IMG/VR virus record: IMGVR_UViG_2563366874_000010
Origin: a virus
Taxonomy: Duplodnaviria > Heunggongvirae > Uroviricota > Caudoviricetes
Direction: 5' to 3' (one strand)
DNA: 36,400 nucleotides
In this document: in pieces, positions 2,834-33,780 of the stretch
Layout of the letters: each line of letters begins with the position of its first letter
Numbering within the stretch: position 1 is the first letter of the stretch
Made by a program: the position numbers and the translations under genes
Notes under the pieces: generated by a model
Seen by the model: the letters and a program-made list of their open reading frames with translations, nothing else
The model's database searches: none
What the model was told of the DNA's origin: nothing

Positions 2834-3430
2834 TCAATTTGAAACTATTGTACTTCTTATACAAGCAACCACTTCAATATCAGAAAATGCACATTCAAAG
2901 CTATTCTCTGTAGTTGTAATTTTAATCATACCTTTTGGAAGCTTTGTGATTTTTCGAATGGAATAGGTTCCGTCGATGTTGATTAACCAGTGTCCATCAA
3001 GTACTTCAGAAAATTTTTGATCACAAATGTATGTGACAAGCCCATCCTGAATAACAATTGGTGATGAAAGATTTGCAGGAAGAAATGATGAATCGAATAC
3101 ATATGAACCATCTTCAATCATTTTGCCTGCGGTAAGGCGAAACTTGGGAAGCTCTTCTGTGGCTACTGTCAGCGAGCTTTGCTTAAGTCCTTGCCCGGTG
3201 GTTAACCATTTCAGTGAGGTTCCTGTTTCAAGAGCACATTGGATTATCCAGTCTGCAGGAAACGTATCCCGCAAATACCTGTTCGCCAGAGTGCTTTTTG
3301 ATACTTCCAAGTGATCAGCTAAAGCCTGTCGTGTCGTAAAGCCATAAGCTTCGACTAATCGCTCAATCGCAGCCTTACCACCTTTATTGGGATTTATTTT
3401 GATCTCACTTGGGTACTTTGATGTTGACAT
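2834..3430 (-). CDS. cI: Immunity repressor, phage 186 CI-like (HTH N-domain)
   Basis: 198-aa ORF with HTH segment TTRQALADHLEVSKSTLANRY and CALETG..W.TGQG, matching recalled 186 CI; divergent from apl/cII. Confidence 0.8.
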   Translation of the reverse strand: MSTSKYPSEIKINPNKGGKAAIERLVEAYGFTTRQALADHLEVSKSTLANRYLRDTFPADWIIQCALETGTSLKWLTTGQGLKQSSLTVATEELPKFRLTAGKMIEDGSYVFDSSFLPANLSSPIVIQDGLVTYICDQKFSEVLDGHWLINIDGTYSIRKITKLPKGMIKITTTENSFECAFSDIEVVACIRSTIVSN

Positions 3431-5330: not shown

Positions 5331-5629
5331 CAAGGGCAGTGCGTATCCATCAATTAAAAATTGCACCTAAGTATTTCAACGCTGTGGTTGCAGGTCAAAA
5401 GACGGCTGAACTTCGTAAAGACGATCGTGGCTATAAAGTTGGTGATGTTCTTTCTCTTTGCGAATGGAAGCATGGCGTATTTACGGGTAGGGAATGGGCC
5501 GCTGTTATCTCTCATGTGCTTCCGGTTAATGACGTCATGGCAGTTTCAGAACAATGGGTGATGCTATCAATTCGCCCATTAACCCCATTAGAAGCTTTAG
5601 GATATGTTATTGCAGGAGGTGCTGTATGA
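5327..5629 (+). CDS. ASCH/PUA-like small protein (DUF3850-like)
   Basis: 100-aa ORF starting in ATGA overlap with previous stop; RBS GGAGG; motif pattern [26 protein letters not shown] typical of ASCH-like domains (from memory). Confidence 0.6.
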
Positions 5630-6483
5630 GCACCATCCTGAAATGGGCGGGAAATAAAACCGCCATTATGTCCGAACTGAAAAAACACCTTCCTGCTGGC
5701 CCGCGACTGGTTGAACCTTTCGCGGGTTCCTGTGCTGTGATGATGGCGACGGATTACCCCAGCTATCTGGTTGCGGATATTAATCCTGATTTAATCAACC
5801 TCTATAAAAAGATTGCCGCTGATTGCGAGGCGTTTATATCTCGCGCCAGAGTTTTATTTGAGATCGCAAACAGGGAGGTGGCTTATTACAACATAAGGCA
5901 GGAGTTTAATTACTCAACTGAAATTACTGATTTCATGAAAGCGGTATATTTCCTGTATCTCAATCGTCATGGTTACCGTGGGTTATGTCGCTATAACAAG
6001 AGCGGGCATTTCAACATTCCCTACGGGAATTATAAAAATCCGTATTTCCCTGAAAAAGAAATTCGCAAATTTGCAGAAAAAGCCCAGCGAGCAACGTTTA
6101 TCTGCGCCAGCTTTGATGAAACGCTGGCGATGCTGCAGGTGGGGGATGTGGTGTATTGCGATCCGCCTTATGACGGTACGTTTTCCGGCTATCACACTGA
6201 CGGCTTCACTGAAGATGACCAGTATCACCTGGCATCTGTTCTTGAATATCGATCATCAGAAGGTCATCCAGTCATTGTTTCTAACAGTGACACATCCCTG
6301 ATCCGTTCGCTGTATCGCAATTTCACTCACCACTACATCAAGGCAAAACGCAGCATCGGCGTGTCGGCTGGCGAGAGTAAATCTGCAACAGAAATCATTG
6401 CTGTTTCCGGGGCGCGCTGCTGGGTGGGATTTGATCCTTCGCGTGGCGTGGATAGTTCTGCTGTGTACGAGGTGCGTGTATGA
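5626..6483 (+). CDS. DNA N6-adenine methyltransferase, Dam family (orphan, no cognate endonuclease seen)
   Basis: 285 aa; N-terminal ILKWAGNK and catalytic DPPY (VYCDPPYDG) motifs; start in ATGA overlap with RBS GGAGG. Confidence 0.9.
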
Positions 6484-8894
6484 GTCATGCCGATATGAGC
6501 GACTCTAGCGGCTTTAACGAGGCCGCTGCAGCATTTTCATGGAACGGCCCGAAAAAGGCCATAAACCCTTATCTGGACCCGGCGGAAGTTGCGCCGGTTT
6601 CTGCGCTTTCAAACCTGATCACTCTGTATGCTGCCGATAACGAGCAGGAACAGCTGCGCCGCGAGGAATTGAGTGAACAGGTCTGGGAGCGTTATTTCTT
6701 TAATGAATCCCGTGATCCTGTCCAGCGCGAAATGGAGCAGGATAAGCTCATTAGTCGGGCAAAGCTGGCGCATGAGCAGCAGCGTTTTAACCCGGACATG
6801 GTCATTCTGGCGGACGTCAGCGCCCAGCCCACCCATATCAGCAAGCCGCTGATGCAACGTATCGAATACTTCAGCAGCCTGGGCAGGCCAAAGGCTTATT
6901 CCCGCTATTTGCGTGAGACGATTAAGCCATGTCTGGAGCGACTGGATTGTGTACGTGACAGTCAGCTATCTGCTTCTTTCCGTTTTATGGCAAGCCATCA
7001 AGGGCTGGAGGGCCTGCTGATCCTGCCTGAAATGAGTCAGGATCAGGTGAAACGCCTGTCCACCCTGGTAGCAGCGCATATGAGCATGTGTCTTGAGGCC
7101 GCTTGTGGTGATTTGTATGCCACCGATGACGTTAAGCCAGAAGAAATCCGCAAGACATGGGAAAAGGTGGCAGCGGAAACCCTGCGTCTGGATGTTATCC
7201 CGCCTGCGTTTGAGAAACTTCGTCGGAAAAGAAACCGCCGCAAACCCGTGCCCTATGAACTCATACCGGGTTCGCTGGCACGTATGCTTTGCGCCGACTG
7301 GTGGTATCGGAAATTGTGGAAGATGCGTTGCGAATGGCGGGAAGAGCAGTTGCGTGCTGTCTGTCTGGTCAGCAAAAAAGCATCTCCCTATGTCAGCTAT
7401 GAAGCAGTGACACATAAACGTGAGCAGCGCCGCAAGTCGCTGGAGTTTTTCCGTTCTCATGAACTGGTGAATGAAGACGGAGACACGCTGGATATGGAGG
7501 ATGTGGTAAACGCCAGCAGCAGCAATCCGGCGCATCGCCGCAATGAGATGATGGCCTGTGTTAAAGGTCTGGAGCTTATCGCAGAAATGCGCGGTGACTG
7601 CGCCGTTTTCTACACTATCACCTGTCCGTCACGTTTCCATTCCACGCTCAACAACGGCAGACCCAACCCGACCTGGACAAATGCGACGGTAAGACAAAGC
7701 AGCGATTATCTGGTCGGCATGTTTGCTGCATTTCGTAAGGCTATGCACAAAGCCGGGTTGCGCTGGTATGGCGTGCGGGTGGCTGAGCCGCACCATGACG
7801 GTACTGTGCACTGGCATCTCATGTGTTTCATGCGCAAAAAAGACCGCCGCGCCATTACTGCATTGTTGCGTAAGTTTGCCATCCGTGAAGACCGTGAGGA
7901 ACTGGGCAATAACACGGGGCCACGCTTTAAGTCTGAGCTGATAAACCCGCGCAAAGGAACGCCGACAAGCTACATCGCGAAATACATCAGTAAGAACATT
8001 GACGGACGTGGTCTGGCTGGCGAGATCAGCAAGGAAACGGGTAAATCCCTGCGTGATAACGCCGAATACGTGAATGCCTGGGCGTCTCTACATCGTGTTC
8101 AGCAGTTCCGCTTCTTTGGTATTCCGGGGCGTCAGGCGTACCGTGAACTTCGCTTGCTGGCTGGTCAGGCGGCAAGGCAACAGGGTGACAAAAAAGCAAG
8201 TACGCCGATACTGGATGACCCGCGCCTTGATGCCATCCTGGCTGCCGCTGATGCTGGCTGTTTTGCCACCTACATCATGAAGCAGGGCGGCGTACTGGTT
8301 CCCCGCAAATATCACCTTATCAGAACAGCTTATGAAATTAACGAAGAGCCGACCGCTTATGGCGATCACGGTATTCGTATTTATGGCATCTGGTCACCCA
8401 TTGTACAGGGCAAGATCTGCACTCATGCAATGAAATGGAAAATGGTTCGTAAGGCCGTTGACGTTCAGGAGGCGGCAGCCGACCAGGGCGCTTGCGCCCC
8501 TTGGACTCGTGGCAATAACTGTCCCCTTGCTGAAAATTTGAACCAACAGGAGAAAGATAAATCAGCTGATGGGGACACCAGAACGGACATTACCCGCATG
8601 GATGACAAGGAGTTGCACGATCACCTGCACAGTATGAGCAAAAAAGAGCGCCGGGAACTGGCTGCAAGGTTACGCCTGGTTAAACCGATACGGCGTAAAG
8701 ACTACAAACAGCGAATTACAGATCATCAGCGACAGCAGCTCGTTTATGAGCTGAAGTCCAGAGGATTTGATGGCAGCGAGAAAGAGGTCGATTTACTCCT
8801 TCGCGGCGGCAGTATTCCGTCAGGAGCAGGCCTGCGTATCTTCTATCGGAACCAGCGTCTGCAGGAGGATGATAAATGGCGGAACCTGTATTAA
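6480..8894 (+). CDS. A: Replication initiation protein, P2 gpA-like rolling-circle endonuclease
   Basis: 804-aa ORF with HxH-type segment ([13 protein letters not shown]) and tyrosine-containing region (YIAKYISKN). Confidence 0.9.
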
Positions 8895-8988
8895 TTACGC
8901 TGGTTAACAATTCGTGCTCTTAATAATACCAGGCATATCAGGCTGATGAGCGTAAAAAAACGTTTTACATCAGTAAGATTATTATATA

Positions 8989-9004
8989 CTGTAAATATAA
9001 ACAG
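8989..9004. promoter_or_regulatory. LexA box (SOS operator) CTGTAAATATAAACAG
   Basis: Exact CTGT-N8-ACAG palindrome with AT-rich spacer, overlapping a -10-like TATACT (8985-8990) upstream of the ORF at 9048. Confidence 0.75.
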
Positions 9005-9047
9005 TGGTTATGTGTACAGTATTGCTTGTGGTGTCATAGGAGGAAAA

Positions 9048-9236
9048 ATGCAGGACTATTTTTTGGAGTCTTTGAAGCTCCAGCGCATTGATTTTTTTCT
9101 TAAGCTTGTAGCGGCTAGTGAGTGTAGTGATGAAGAGAAGGGGCTGGCCCTGCAGTGGGTTTCTGAACTGACAGATGAACTCATGGCAAAAATCAGAACC
9201 CACGAATACAACCGCTCAATGGATGTCATCAGTTGA
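9048..9236 (+). CDS. Small SOS-controlled protein, possibly the N-terminal part of a Tum-like antirepressor
   Basis: 62-aa ORF with RBS AGGAGG before ATG 9048, just downstream of the LexA box. Confidence 0.55.
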   Translation: MQDYFLESLKLQRIDFFLKLVAASECSDEEKGLALQWVSELTDELMAKIRTHEYNRSMDVIS

Positions 9237-9246
9237 GGTGACTTTT

Positions 9247-9480
9247 ATGCGCATTGAAATAATGATCGATAAAGAGCAGAAGATTAGCCAGTCTACCCTG
9301 GACGCCCTTGAATCCGAGCTTTACCGCAATCTGCGCCCCCTGTATCCCAAAACGGTAATTCGTATCCGTAAAGGTAGCTCTAACGGTGTGGAACTGACCG
9401 GACTGCAACTGGATGAAGAAAGAAAACAAGTGATGAAAATTATGCAGAAGGTGTGGGAAGACGACAGCTGGCTGCATTAA
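9247..9480 (+). CDS. DinI-family protein (Tum C-terminal-like)
   Basis: 77 aa starting MRIEI, resembling recalled E. coli DinI (MRIEV...DAL..EL...WE..D.W); RBS GAGGTGA upstream. Confidence 0.8.
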   Translation: MRIEIMIDKEQKISQSTLDALESELYRNLRPLYPKTVIRIRKGSSNGVELTGLQLDEERKQVMKIMQKVWEDDSWLH

Positions 9481-9672
9481 GAAACGTTGCCCCCAGGAGG
9501 ATTCATTCTGATGGGGGCTAGTTTGGGCAACGAGTGAAACGAGGCGTAAGGTGGGTGGGCATTTTGATAAGTGATCGTCCGCTTTGTGTCAGAAGCAGAA
9601 GTGGGAGTGTCTGAGACTCTCTAAAAGTTGATGATTCACTTACAAAACCATTTTCCTGATGAATGCTTACAC

Positions 9673-10008
9673 TTACGAATGATCATTCTGTTTAGTCTTC
9701 ATGAGAAAATCCCGAATCTTTGCCAAGTTTGAATTTTCGGGGATTGAATCCATGTACGGATCACGCTCAAACACTAATTGCTCAGATTCAACGAAAGCCT
9801 GCCACTCTACTGGGTCTAGCTCAAATCCCATTGCTGTCATATCACTTTCATCTTCCCCCTCGATCCAGTGGACTAAATAAAACAATTCATCATCAGGAGA
9901 ATCATCCTCACCATCAACAATATCAACATCGGTTACAGTGATACGTAGGGTGGGATCGATTTTTGAGACATAAATTCCTAACTGTGGTATAGGGGGAATA
10001 TTGTTCAT
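9673..10008 (-). CDS. Small strongly acidic protein, unknown function; cargo
   Basis: 111-aa ORF with strong RBS (AAAAGGAG) before ATG at 10008; D/E-rich runs (DGEDDSPDDE, EGEDESD); convergent with the SOS module. Confidence 0.7.
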   Translation of the reverse strand: MNNIPPIPQLGIYVSKIDPTLRITVTDVDIVDGEDDSPDDELFYLVHWIEGEDESDMTAMGFELDPVEWQAFVESEQLVFERDPYMDSIPENSNLAKIRDFLMKTKQNDHS

Positions 10009-10387
10009 GGAAACTCCTTTTATTGGTGTTTGCTATTTGAATAAAAATACGCCAAACAGAGTGTTAACTGTGAATATGGAAAGAATCGTTGTAAGTACCC
10101 CGCTTAGGTGTCCCATTCTATTTTAGAGGTTCTCGTGCATATGGATTATGTTATCTGAAAGCTAACTTCCGCTTCCCGTTCACAGCGAACATTCATCTTT
10201 GTAAACCCGTATGATCCGTTTTTCAAGTGGCCATTCAGATACGGATTTTCACTTCCTTGACAGTGCATGACTATGCTGCATGAAATCGCATGATCGATTG
10301 AGGATCGTCTTTGCTCAGATCCGCCAGAACTGGCGGGCTTTTGCTCATGTCATGCATGTGCATGAAAACCACTGCATAAAGCGGGCA

Positions 10388-10406
10388 GGCGTGGCGGGGA
10401 TACGAG
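10388..10406. other. Candidate cos cohesive-end sequence (GGCGTGGCGGGGATACGAG)
   Basis: First 13 nt match the recalled P2/186 cos 19-mer family (GGCG[A/T]GGCGGGGA); hairpin plus T-tract (10321-10342) just upstream. Confidence 0.35.
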
Positions 10407-10458
10407 CGCGCGCTATCACCGAAAATAGCCAAAATACTTCTGGAAAACAGAAAGTTGA

Positions 10459-12405
<1,947 letters not shown>

Positions 12406-33567: not shown

Positions 33568-33780
33568 TCGTTAAAAAACAGTGCTTCTAACATCATGATT
33601 TTAAAAGGCATAAATTTTAGACAACAAAAAACCCACCAACCTTGAACCGAAATGGCGGGGTTGATGGGCTCCACAAAATGGGGACATCAAAGAAAAGCAG
33701 TGGCACTAATTAAGACTGATGCCCTGCGGAAAAGTTCTGCGGTTGTGCAAAAAAATTTCATTTTCAGGGCAACTTCAGTT

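Follow-up and report, generated by a model that had tools for sequence, protein, structure and literature searches.

The window, meaning the whole 36,400-nucleotide stretch of viral DNA that we analysed, carries a two-gene module close to the right end of a P2/186-like prophage. The module is an ordinary, previously described DNA-damage switch of Fels-2-like (P2/186-family) prophages. Its parts, and the repressor gene that bears on its function, are listed here by window coordinate.

2834–3430, minus strand: cI, 198 aa, immunity repressor of the 186 family (PF07022 and PF16452), presumed target of ORF1
8964–8969, plus strand: probable -35 hexamer TTTACA, invariant in 7 of 7 aligned relatives and placed as the -35 of 186 p95
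8987–8992, plus strand: probable -10 hexamer TACTGT, inside LexA box 1, assigned by analogy with 186 p95
8987–9006 (core 8989–9004), plus strand: LexA box 1, a 20-mer that matches the consensus and is conserved in relatives
9004–9019, plus strand: LexA box 2, GTGGTTATGTGTACAG, sharing one base with box 1 and conserved in all 7 relatives aligned
9038–9043, plus strand: Shine-Dalgarno sequence of ORF1, AGGAGG, seen in the sequence and conserved in relatives
9048–9236, plus strand: ORF1, 62 aa, small acidic helical-hairpin protein of the TumA type, by profile homology to the N-terminal region of Tum
9235–9240, plus strand: Shine-Dalgarno sequence of ORF2, GAGGTG, seen in the sequence and overlapping the ORF1 stop codon
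9247–9480, plus strand: ORF2, 77 aa, DinI-family protein of the TumB type (Pfam PF06183)
9483–9524, plus strand: conserved 17-bp stem-loop immediately 3' of ORF2, identified by paired cells and compensatory changes

The order gpA (6480–8894), module (8964–9480), and cos (10388–10406) is that of a P2/186-like right end, and the position directly downstream of replication gene A is the one occupied by tum in 186 and by tumA/tumB in PsP3. The cos sequence is GGCGTGGCGGGGATACGAG, and its left flank matches the right end of 186; a conserved stretch after ORF2 at about 9530–9550, containing CGAGGCG, was considered as a candidate cos and rejected, since the real site lies at 10388–10406. On the 3' side of the module lie the conserved hairpin, an ORF on the reverse strand, cos, and a retron. 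The window also contains a Cox/Apl-like gene and a cII-like gene, with a type I-C retron and a PD-Lambda-1 homologue among the prophage cargo.

Across 6 phages, 95% of the cells in the stem-loop at 9483–9524 are paired and 7 pairs show compensatory changes, a level of pairing reached by none of 500 shuffles (slid controls were 35 to 50% paired). The stem-loop has no U-tract and no Rfam match, and an Rfam search of 8850–10500 and 10350–10750 returned no family. It probably marks where the two-gene transcript ends, as a terminator or stabiliser.

Of 5426 complete E. coli genomes, 1125 contain the module region, and the two-ORF layout recurs in 53 phage records (at least 80% coverage). The module is the standard induction unit of a widespread type of prophage, found in roughly one complete E. 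coli genome in five.

Probable promoter and double LexA operator

The first-pass annotation had placed a near-consensus LexA box at 8989–9004, and this box is present. Its core is CTGTAAATATAAACAG, and the corresponding 20-mer, TACTGTAAATATAAACAGTG (8987–9006), shares 17 of its 20 bases with the consensus TACTGTATATATATACAGTA; none of 100 shuffles contained a 20-mer within three mismatches of the consensus. The bare core CTGT-N8-ACAG is not rare (1 match against 0.36 expected, with at least one match in 31 of 100 shuffles). Box 1 is placed as the annotated LexA site of 186 p95, and its counterpart by alignment in the ColE1 cea and pPCP1 pst promoters is the distal SOS box.

What that reading of the operator overlooked is a second LexA-type box at 9004–9019, which shares the base G9004 with box 1. 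The box 2 pattern, ACAGTGGTTAT.T.TACAG, is kept in 7 of 7 aligned relatives, and alignment pairs it almost base by base with the proximal SOS boxes of ColE1 cea (GTGGTTATATGTACAG) and the pesticin gene. The operator therefore consists of two 16-bp LexA boxes with a 1-bp overlap, the arrangement of the colicin-type dual SOS operator; the concept of overlapping dual SOS boxes has been described (PMC2994835). Matches to the operator were found in 838 plasmid records, at 82 to 90% identity.

The promoter-like -10 that had been said to overlap the box is probably TACTGT, inside box 1. This assignment depends on analogy with 186, and a generic sigma-70 consensus scan found no promoter at the module. 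Together with TTTACA and the intervening 17 nt, this hexamer likely forms an SOS promoter with a weak architecture like that of 186 p95, which is annotated as TTCACA, 18 nt, and TACTGT, with the -10 within its LexA site. An alternative -10 is TATACT at 8985–8990, with a 15-nt spacer. At the level of sequence, then, the region has the make-up of a LexA-repressed promoter, with a near-consensus 20-mer lying over the -10 and a conserved second box. LexA would bind both boxes, and the double box may make induction tighter and later than in 186.

The two proteins and the CI repressor

ORF2 covers the full Pfam DinI domain (PF06183, profile positions 1 to 63 of 63) with an E-value of 6.6e-23 and a score of 81.3 bits, above the curated cut-off of 24.2. 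It is 78% identical to PsP3 TumB and 41% identical to residues 71 to 145 of 186 Tum, its start coinciding exactly with the annotated internal GTG start (V71) of 186 tum. It also aligns with E. coli DinI (1GHH) over residues 1 to 75 (E = 2.7e-6). Family membership suggests that ORF2 may bind RecA filaments and modulate RecA coprotease activity.

The start of ORF1 is the ATG at 9048 and not the ATG at 8946, because the AGGAGG sequence is conserved while the region upstream has indels. The protein matches PHROG 698 (E = 3.6e-38), PHROG 8554 (2.4e-8), and PHROG 1993, the PsP3 TumA family (2.2e-3). Residues 7 to 44 of 186 Tum in turn match PHROG 698 at 2.4e-5, and these PHROG cross-matches are reciprocal. 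When the ORF1 family was aligned with 186 Tum by hhalign, residues 3 to 44 were colinear with residues 3 to 44 (probability 94.7%, E = 6e-8), which indicates homology over the N-terminal region of about 45 residues at an identity of only about 20%. A 60-aa Yersinia phage protein named "tum" bridges the two by BLASTP (2e-10 to 186 Tum, 9e-8 to ORF1). In direct pairwise BLASTP comparisons, ORF1 showed no similarity to 186 Tum or to PsP3 TumA; therefore ORF1 is not a recent derivative of 186 Tum. Profiles connect ORF1 with PsP3 TumA only weakly (E = 0.004, probability 8%). The label "split Tum" consequently needs qualifying, as the homology between ORF1 and 186 Tum appears at the profile level only.

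An AlphaFold2 model of ORF1 (pLDDT 87.7) predicts two helices, at residues 2 to 23 and 28 to 61. A Foldseek search of this model against the PDB gave generic helical hairpins only, none at E ≤ 0.001; a sequence search of the PDB found nothing, and ORF1 has no Pfam family. In nearly all records, ORF1 is called "hypothetical protein" or, wrongly, "levan regulatory protein," and gene callers often stretch it upstream across its own promoter, to 87 to 96 aa. The practical value of the present analysis lies in annotation: ORF1 should read TumA-type antirepressor, 62 aa.

ORF1 is probably an antirepressor of the prophage CI. The same element encodes a presumed cognate repressor of the 186 family, 33% identical to 186 CI (E = 1e-34) and matching the 186 CI structure 2FJR at E = 6e-27. 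Among 12 phages, which are not independent and 7 of which share one ORF1 type, identity in the ORF1 core correlated with identity in the CI N-terminal domain (Spearman 0.81, Mantel p = 1e-4) and did not correlate with identity in the CI C-terminal domain (0.05, p = 0.35). The divergence of ORF1 thus tracks the N-terminal and not the C-terminal domain of CI, which, like the box pair, goes beyond the earlier reading. In phages with identical ORF1, the CI N-terminal domains are 72 to 85% identical and the rest of CI only 25 to 33%. This co-variation lends indirect support to the idea that ORF1 would bind CI, most plausibly at its N-terminal domain, and so prevent operator binding, but the correlation could instead reflect recombination history rather than contact.

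One alternative is that ORF1 alone is insufficient and that ORF1 and ORF2 act only jointly, as a non-covalent complex that rebuilds a two-domain Tum-like antirepressor. The two halves are covalently joined in 186, their adjacency is kept across many genera with spacers of 3 to 13 nt, and ORF2 is highly conserved, all of which would fit such a complex. However, in ESSI-2-like and Yersinia enterocolitica phages the ORF1-like gene has no dinI-like neighbour, a separate start is annotated for the DinI half of 186, and deletion of the Gifsy dinI homologue left induction unaffected (PMC3121763). The same paper quotes second-hand a personal communication that the upstream gene of PSP3 alone carries antirepressor activity. 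We therefore regard obligate joint action as unlikely.

Less probable still, and in our judgment distinctly improbable, is that ORF1 is a small SOS-induced accessory protein with some other target, unrelated to prophage induction. Its lack of a Pfam family or a solved relative and its "hypothetical" label in databases leave room for this reading, as does the pairing of identical ORF1 proteins with CI proteins just 42 to 50% identical overall. Against it stand the profile homology of ORF1 to the N-terminal region of Tum, the position and LexA control that it shares with tum, its co-variation with the CI N-terminal domain, and the membership of the window CI in the non-cleavable 186 family, which needs an antirepressor.

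The junction between the two genes

The module comprises, as originally reported, a 62-aa ORF and a 77-aa DinI-family ORF in different frames (9048–9236 and 9247–9480). The spacing had been given as 11 bp and is actually 10 nt (9237–9246): ORF1 stops at 9234–9236, and the spacer is accompanied by a +1 frame change to ORF2. Two interpretations had been offered, a frameshifted tum impaired in SOS induction and a naturally split arrangement. They drew on the statement that 186 Tum is a protein of about 146 aa with a DinI-like C-terminal half, which is accurate, and on the calculation that a single-nucleotide indel would yield a fusion of about 143 aa, which is arithmetically sound given the +1 offset and an ORF2 frame that is open for 25 codons upstream of its own ATG.

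The two-gene arrangement is natural and is not a broken copy of a fused 186 tum. This has been published, since Lemire et al. (2011) report that tum is split in two in Fels-2 and PSP3 (PMC3121763), and the PsP3 genes appear as tumA and tumB in GenBank. In seven phages from at least four genera, ORF1 is constant at 62 aa and ORF2 at 77 aa with a spacer of 10, 11, 12, or 13 nt; therefore, all three relative frames occur (offsets 0, 1, and 2). Relatives carry a purine-rich GGGGA or AGGGA at the position of the ORF2 Shine-Dalgarno sequence. Both ORFs are under purifying selection, with substitutions concentrated at third codon positions in the frame of each (34/24/101 at positions one, two, and three for ORF1 and 48/26/130 for ORF2). 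The tail of ORF1, which would be out of frame in a fusion, shows the same bias in the ORF1 frame (14/18/42). The reading frames of the pair are thus independent.

The Tum N-terminal and DinI regions do not share one ORF here, and they are split in all the relatives. A phmmer search of 1.84 billion representative proteins gave 66 matches, and among those of 22 to 133 aa none has the length and layout of a fusion of ORF1 with DinI, the matching region being N-terminal or after an N-terminal extension only. Two further matches are longer, at 217 aa and at 1218 aa, the latter without an aligned stretch. Fused proteins were likewise absent among the 120 best word-index matches. Just 5 of the 5426 E. 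coli genomes contain a full-length tum of the fused 186 type.

These comparative data refute the reading of an inactive tum, frameshifted by mutation or by an assembly indel, in a prophage no longer inducible by SOS. A 1-nt deletion at about 9172–9233 would indeed produce an ORF of about 143 aa, near the 146 aa of 186 Tum. Yet the identical layout recurs in Fels-2, in the 53 phage records, and in the 1125 E. coli genomes; the spacer varies across genera while the ORFs hold their lengths; each ORF has its own Shine-Dalgarno sequence; and the codon-position bias expected to be lost in a frameshifted pseudogene is kept, down to the tail of ORF1. The split is, moreover, called native in the literature (PMC3121763). 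An indel artefact in the assembly at 9170–9250 is, on the comparative data, very unlikely.

Equally improbable is a fused protein made by programmed frameshifting or stop-codon bypass at the junction, which we rejected: the open ORF2 frame upstream of the ATG and a hairpin-like sequence at 9225–9242 would suit it, but the shift needed would vary among relatives with their differing relative frames, the upstream open stretch falls to 4 to 14 codons in them, there is no slippery heptamer, and the hairpin does not exceed shuffled sequence in stability (z = -0.15) and is not conserved. The last two results also led us to reject this hairpin, which spans the ORF1 stop and the ORF2 Shine-Dalgarno sequence, as a translational-coupling device.

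Proposed induction model and relation to known systems

We consider it highly probable that the module as a whole serves SOS induction in a P2/186-like prophage of the Fels-2 type, with an ORF1 antirepressor and an ORF2 DinI homologue that are separately translated. In the proposed mechanism, LexA dimers in an undamaged cell would sit on the two overlapping SOS boxes, covering the -10 region and the transcription start, and this occupancy of a weak promoter would keep the two-gene transcript off. DNA damage would then lead to RecA-stimulated self-cleavage of LexA, freeing the promoter and allowing both proteins to be made. ORF1, the acidic helical hairpin, would bind the non-cleavable 186-type CI, most likely at its N-terminal DNA-binding domain, and titrate it away from its operators, which would let lytic transcription begin. 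ORF2 would correspond to the internal-GTG product of 186 tum and would probably tune the SOS signal at RecA filaments rather than act on CI. The prophage is predicted to be SOS-inducible, which bears on mobilisation of the type I-C retron and PD-Lambda-1 homologue that it carries. Two secondary features would add detail to the 186 paradigm, namely the double operator of colicin type and the way ORF1 varies together with the N-terminal domain of CI.

The closest known system is that of Salmonella phage Fels-2 (NC_010463; STM2728 and STM2726.1), which is 98.3% identical at the nucleotide level over 599 bases and shares the 62- and 77-aa ORFs, the 10-nt spacer, the double LexA box, and the position after gpA. 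It differs by one ORF1 residue (S62N) and in what comes next, which is an orf97-like gene in Fels-2 in place of the features found downstream here.

PsP3 (NC_005340) has a LexA-controlled two-cistron module after gene A, in which tumA is annotated "similar to 5' end 186 tum; UV induction of prophage." Its TumA belongs to another subfamily than ORF1 (PHROG 1993 rather than PHROG 698), its two genes are in frame with each other and 3 nt apart, and, like 186, it has a single LexA box and lacks box 2. A literature search on "TumA/TumB" returned unrelated papers only.

In 186, Tum is likewise a LexA-repressed antirepressor of a non-cleavable CI, with a -10 TACTGT inside the LexA box. Once p95 is released from LexA repression, Tum sequesters CI and thereby inactivates it (PMC7708051); for 186 Tum, binding to CI, interference with operator binding, and sufficiency for induction are known (PMC3121763, PMC7708051). 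Its N-terminal region of about 44 residues is homologous to ORF1 and its residues 71 to 146 to ORF2. There, however, a single ORF of 146 aa spans both, with a linker of 26 residues between them and internal starts annotated, and orf97 follows.

The operator itself is closest to those of ColE1 cea and pPCP1 pst, which have two 16-bp LexA boxes with a one-base overlap and nearly the sequence found here. The colicin and pesticin promoters drive toxin and lysis genes and not an antirepressor, and in ColE1 the distance from the -35 element down to the boxes is greater than in the window.

The Gifsy-1, -2, and -3 prophages of Salmonella offer a parallel in their dinI-gfoA/gftA modules, where LexA controls a DinI homologue and a small antirepressor directed against a non-cleavable repressor. 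These are lambdoid phages, with dinI placed first and with unrelated families of antirepressor and repressor. Trans-acting cross-talk between Gifsy prophages has been shown (PMC3121763), and we tentatively suggest a counterpart here. The Fels-2-type antirepressor might recognise the N-terminal DNA-binding domain common to many 186-family CI proteins and not an immunity-specific surface, in which case one module could de-repress several co-resident P2-like prophages, and the double SOS operator could keep the module silent and let it fire late or in a subset of cells. Conservation of the CI N-terminal domain extends to its recognition helix, and therefore these phages may not be heteroimmune. 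If the suggestion is true, cross-talk like that of the Gifsy phages would extend across repressors that differ in their C-terminal domains.

Genomic setting of the module

The window carries a P2/186-like (Peduoviridae) prophage. Its left part, up to the probable antirepressor ORF1 (TumA-type) and the DinI-family ORF2 (TumB type), and the region beyond them are arranged as follows:

1-1053, (-): integrase
1137-2813, (-): 558-aa protein, between integrase and cI
2834-3430, (-): cI, 186-family
after cI and before the methylase: Cox/Apl-like and CII-like genes
5554-6483, (+): Dam-like orphan DNA methyltransferase (PADLOC oMTase, E=3.2e-111)
6480-8894: replication gene A, with the module directly 3'
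9048-9236: ORF1, 62 aa, Shine-Dalgarno AGGAGG
9247-9480: ORF2, 77 aa, Shine-Dalgarno GAGGTG overlapping the ORF1 stop
9483-9524, (+): stem-loop of 17 bp, right behind the ORF2 stop codon
9673-10008, (-): acidic ORF of 111 aa (PHROG 17127, E=2e-70)
10388-10406: cos, GGCGTGGCGGGGATACGAG, which agrees with the 186 cohesive end over its first 13 nt; to the left, the flank corresponds to the right end of 186
10465-12405, (+): type I-C retron reverse transcriptase-Toprim (PADLOC E=2.4e-217), flanked by cos and the portal gene
33623-33701, (-): RybB small RNA gene (Rfam, 104 bits), at the right prophage edge

A Dam-like methyltransferase lies just 5' of gene A in both the window and Fels-2. Downstream of the module, the stem-loop is kept in six phages spread over several genera, where 7 pairs show compensatory changes and pairing extends to 95% of cells; none of 500 shuffles reached this pairing, and slid controls were 35 to 50% paired. 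It has no U-tract and no match in Rfam. Fels-2 differs in lacking the stem-loop, with an orf97-like gene in that place, and both 186 and Fels-2 carry orf97 in place of the window's 111-aa ORF, which had no Pfam or PADLOC match.

Two further genes are candidate or recognized cargo. The 558-aa protein, probably encoded as cargo for anti-phage defence, matched PD-Lambda-1 (PADLOC E=1.6e-119) and contains the Pfam domains T5orf172/MUG113 and DUF4041. The retron profile match begins near residue 61, which points to ATG 10645 as the probable true start (586 aa). Upstream of the reverse transcriptase, a 13-nt inverted repeat (10477-10489 and 10595-10607) may be the a1/a2 pair that flanks msr-msd; this upstream region gave no Rfam match. 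At the right edge, the gene next after rybB encodes a host permease (Asp-Al_Ex and TrkA_C domains), and the attachment site is probably the rybB 3' end.

A natural split related to Tum

The module belongs to the Fels-2/PsP3 TumA-TumB type, a natural split that is already known. The first-pass annotation had weighed FRAMESHIFTED against a natural split, and the frameshift reading is refuted. The 681-nt module region is 98.3% identical to Fels-2, where the same two ORFs are annotated as STM2728 and STM2726.1, the latter as "similar to TumB of PsP3". In the window, the ORFs are separated by 10 nt, rather than the 11 bp claimed initially, with a frame difference of +1. We compared six more relatives, which represent the genera Felsduovirus, Elveevirus, Dagavirus, and Gegevirus. 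ORF1 is 62 aa and ORF2 77 aa in every case, whereas spacer length varies (10, 11, 12, or 13 nt, for frame offsets of 1, 2, 0, and 1) and the stop codons differ. Because both halves stay intact while their frame relation drifts, the module is not a fusion disrupted by a frameshift.

Substitutions counted by codon position, with the window as reference, were 34/24/101 in ORF1 and 48/26/130 in ORF2. In the last 20 ORF1 codons, the zone of overlap through which a fusion had been proposed, they were 14/18/42. This codon-position bias indicates purifying selection on both ORFs, each in its own frame. No DinI fusion occurred among the 120 closest ORF1 database homologues (55 to 109 aa). An exhaustive phmmer search of 1.84 billion representatives returned no fusion layout of ~140 aa among 66 hits, leaving out hits of 217 aa and 1218 aa, the latter without an aligned stretch; all but one of the 66 were 22 to 133 aa long, with the match N-terminal or behind a short N-terminal extension.

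In many database entries, ORF1 begins at upstream codons, giving versions of 87 to 96 aa (e.g., ATG 8946; window 8946-9047). ATG 8946 lies upstream of the promoter, and such a start would place the promoter and the LexA boxes within the coding region. Because the upstream region carries indels in relatives, we regard the 87- to 96-aa versions as start-codon miscalls, and lengths above 62 aa among close ORF1 homologues mostly reflect upstream start calls of this type.

At least 80% of the region is present in 53 phage records (Klebsiella, Salmonella, Escherichia, and Yersinia) and in 1,059 complete E. coli genomes, and 1,125 of 5,426 such genomes contain some match. Among the matches listed, the PGAP label was "DinI-like family protein | hypothetical protein" at 15 of 15 places. 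A full-length fused tum of the 186 type was found in only 5 of the same 5,426 genomes, so in E. coli it is the fused tum of textbooks that is rare.

ORF2 clearly belongs to the DinI family (Pfam PF06183, E=6.6e-23; E. coli DinI 1GHH also matched) and is 41% identical to residues 71-145 of Tum, the 186 antirepressor. Its Met1 aligns with Tum V71, a GTG at which the 186 record places the start of a "truncated Tum" modulating SOS induction; thus, the DinI-like half has an annotated start of its own in 186. The 26-residue linker of 186 Tum is absent from the split phages.

ORF1 showed no similarity to 186 Tum in pairwise BLASTP, no family in Pfam, and no relative in the PDB. AlphaFold2 models it as a hairpin of two helices (2-23 and 28-61, pLDDT 87.7), for which Foldseek returned generic hairpins only, and its net charge, counted from sequence, is about -5. 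Profile searches matched ORF1 and 186 Tum residues 7-44 to the same three families: PHROG 698 (E=3.6e-38 and 2.4e-5, respectively), PHROG 8554 (2.4e-8 and 1.4e-11), and PHROG 1993 (2.2e-3 and 1e-22), of which PsP3 TumA is a member. In BLASTP, Yersinia phage vB_YenM_06.16-2 supplies a link between ORF1 and 186 Tum, a 60-aa "tum protein" that matched both (186 Tum, 2e-10; ORF1, 9e-8), and hhalign placed a 32-sequence ORF1-family profile on 186 Tum residues 3-44 at a probability of 94.7% (E=6e-8). Judged by these comparisons, ORF1 is related to Tum at the profile level.

The LexA operator and putative promoter

The control region contains the following elements:

8964-8969: putative -35 TTTACA, 17 nt from the -10, invariant in seven relatives
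8987-8992: putative -10 TACTGT, assigned by likeness to annotated p95, the tum promoter of 186
8989-9004: LexA box 1
9004-9019: LexA box 2, 16-mer GTGGTTATGTGTACAG, sharing one base with box 1

Chance expectation for the bare core CTGT-N8-ACAG in a sequence as long as the window is 0.36 occurrences, so the core alone proves little. The box 1 20-mer TACTGTAAATATAAACAGTG, with three or fewer mismatches to the LexA consensus, was matched by 0 of 100 shuffles. The LexA-boxed two-ORF module noticed at first is real, with small corrections. One of these concerns the operator itself: box 1 stands, and the overlapping box 2 had been missed. In the alignment of relatives, ACAGTGGTTAT.T.TACAG is kept directly 3' of box 1. 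A generic sigma-70 scan of the module found no promoter; the putative elements reproduce the annotated layout of 186 p95 (TTCACA, 18 nt, TACTGT), which has a LexA site in the same position as box 1.

A 56-nt operator query matched 838 plasmid records at 82 to 90% identity. The two examined were the colicin E1 (cea) promoter and the pesticin promoter on Yersinia pestis pPCP1.

Operator comparison
Window: TATACTGTAAATATAAACAGTGGTTATGTGTACAGTATTG
ColE1: TATGCTGTATATAAAACCAGTGGTTATATGTACAGTATTT
pPCP1: TTACTGTACATAAAAACAGTGGTTTTATGTACAGTATTT

The 186 and PsP3 promoters have a single LexA box each, compared to two in the window, and we infer that the double box would make the window module fire more tightly and later.

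The presumed CI target and comparison with known systems

The window's CI, the presumed target of ORF1, is a 186-family repressor (PF07022 and PF16452; 33% identity to 186 CI; structure 2FJR, E=6e-27). Cartapus, Klebsiella phi4.2, 4LV2017, and Kp4847-2 encode a 100% identical ORF1, and their CI proteins are 42 to 50% identical to the window's. This odd pairing is resolved by the conservation of the CI N-terminal domain and the divergence of the rest: among the identical-ORF1 phages and Fels-2, identity is 72 to 85% in the helix-turn-helix domain (residues 17-81) and 25 to 33% outside it. Across 12 phages (66 pairs), ORF1 core identity correlated with CI N-terminal domain identity (Spearman 0.81, Mantel p=1e-4) and not with CI C-terminal domain identity (0.05, p=0.35), which, in a small, non-independent sample dominated by one ORF1 type, supports a putative action of ORF1 on the CI DNA-binding domain. 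A further caveat is that the CI recognition helix is conserved too, so these phages may share immunity. Some 186-family CI proteins carry the N-terminal helix-turn-helix in two tandem copies (286 to 311 aa, versus about 200 aa), namely those of PsP3 (cI 719-1579), Klebsiella phage ST437-OXA245phi4.2, and 4LV2017.

ESSI-2-like and Yersinia enterocolitica phages have ORF1-type genes without a neighboring dinI-like gene, which argues that the small ORF1-type protein would be a self-sufficient effector and the DinI homologue an accessory modulator.

In 186, LexA de-repression of p95 leads to production of Tum, which inactivates CI reversibly by sequestration (PMC7708051). Tum is 146 aa with a DinI-like second half (Lemire, Figueroa-Bossi and Bossi 2011, PMC3121763), in agreement with the first-pass annotation. 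The same paper cites G. E. Christie (personal communication, via Bunny, Liu and Roth 2002) for tum being split in Fels-2 and PSP3 and for antirepressor activity of the upstream PSP3 gene; in GenBank, the PsP3 genes are called tumA ("UV induction of prophage") and tumB. The wording "split by a stop codon" fits PsP3 literally, since its genes are in one frame, 3 nt apart, whereas for Fels-2 and the window it is a simplification. We found no statement of the colicin-type double operator or of the ORF1/CI-N-terminal co-variation in the accessible literature; both are modest refinements of a known module.
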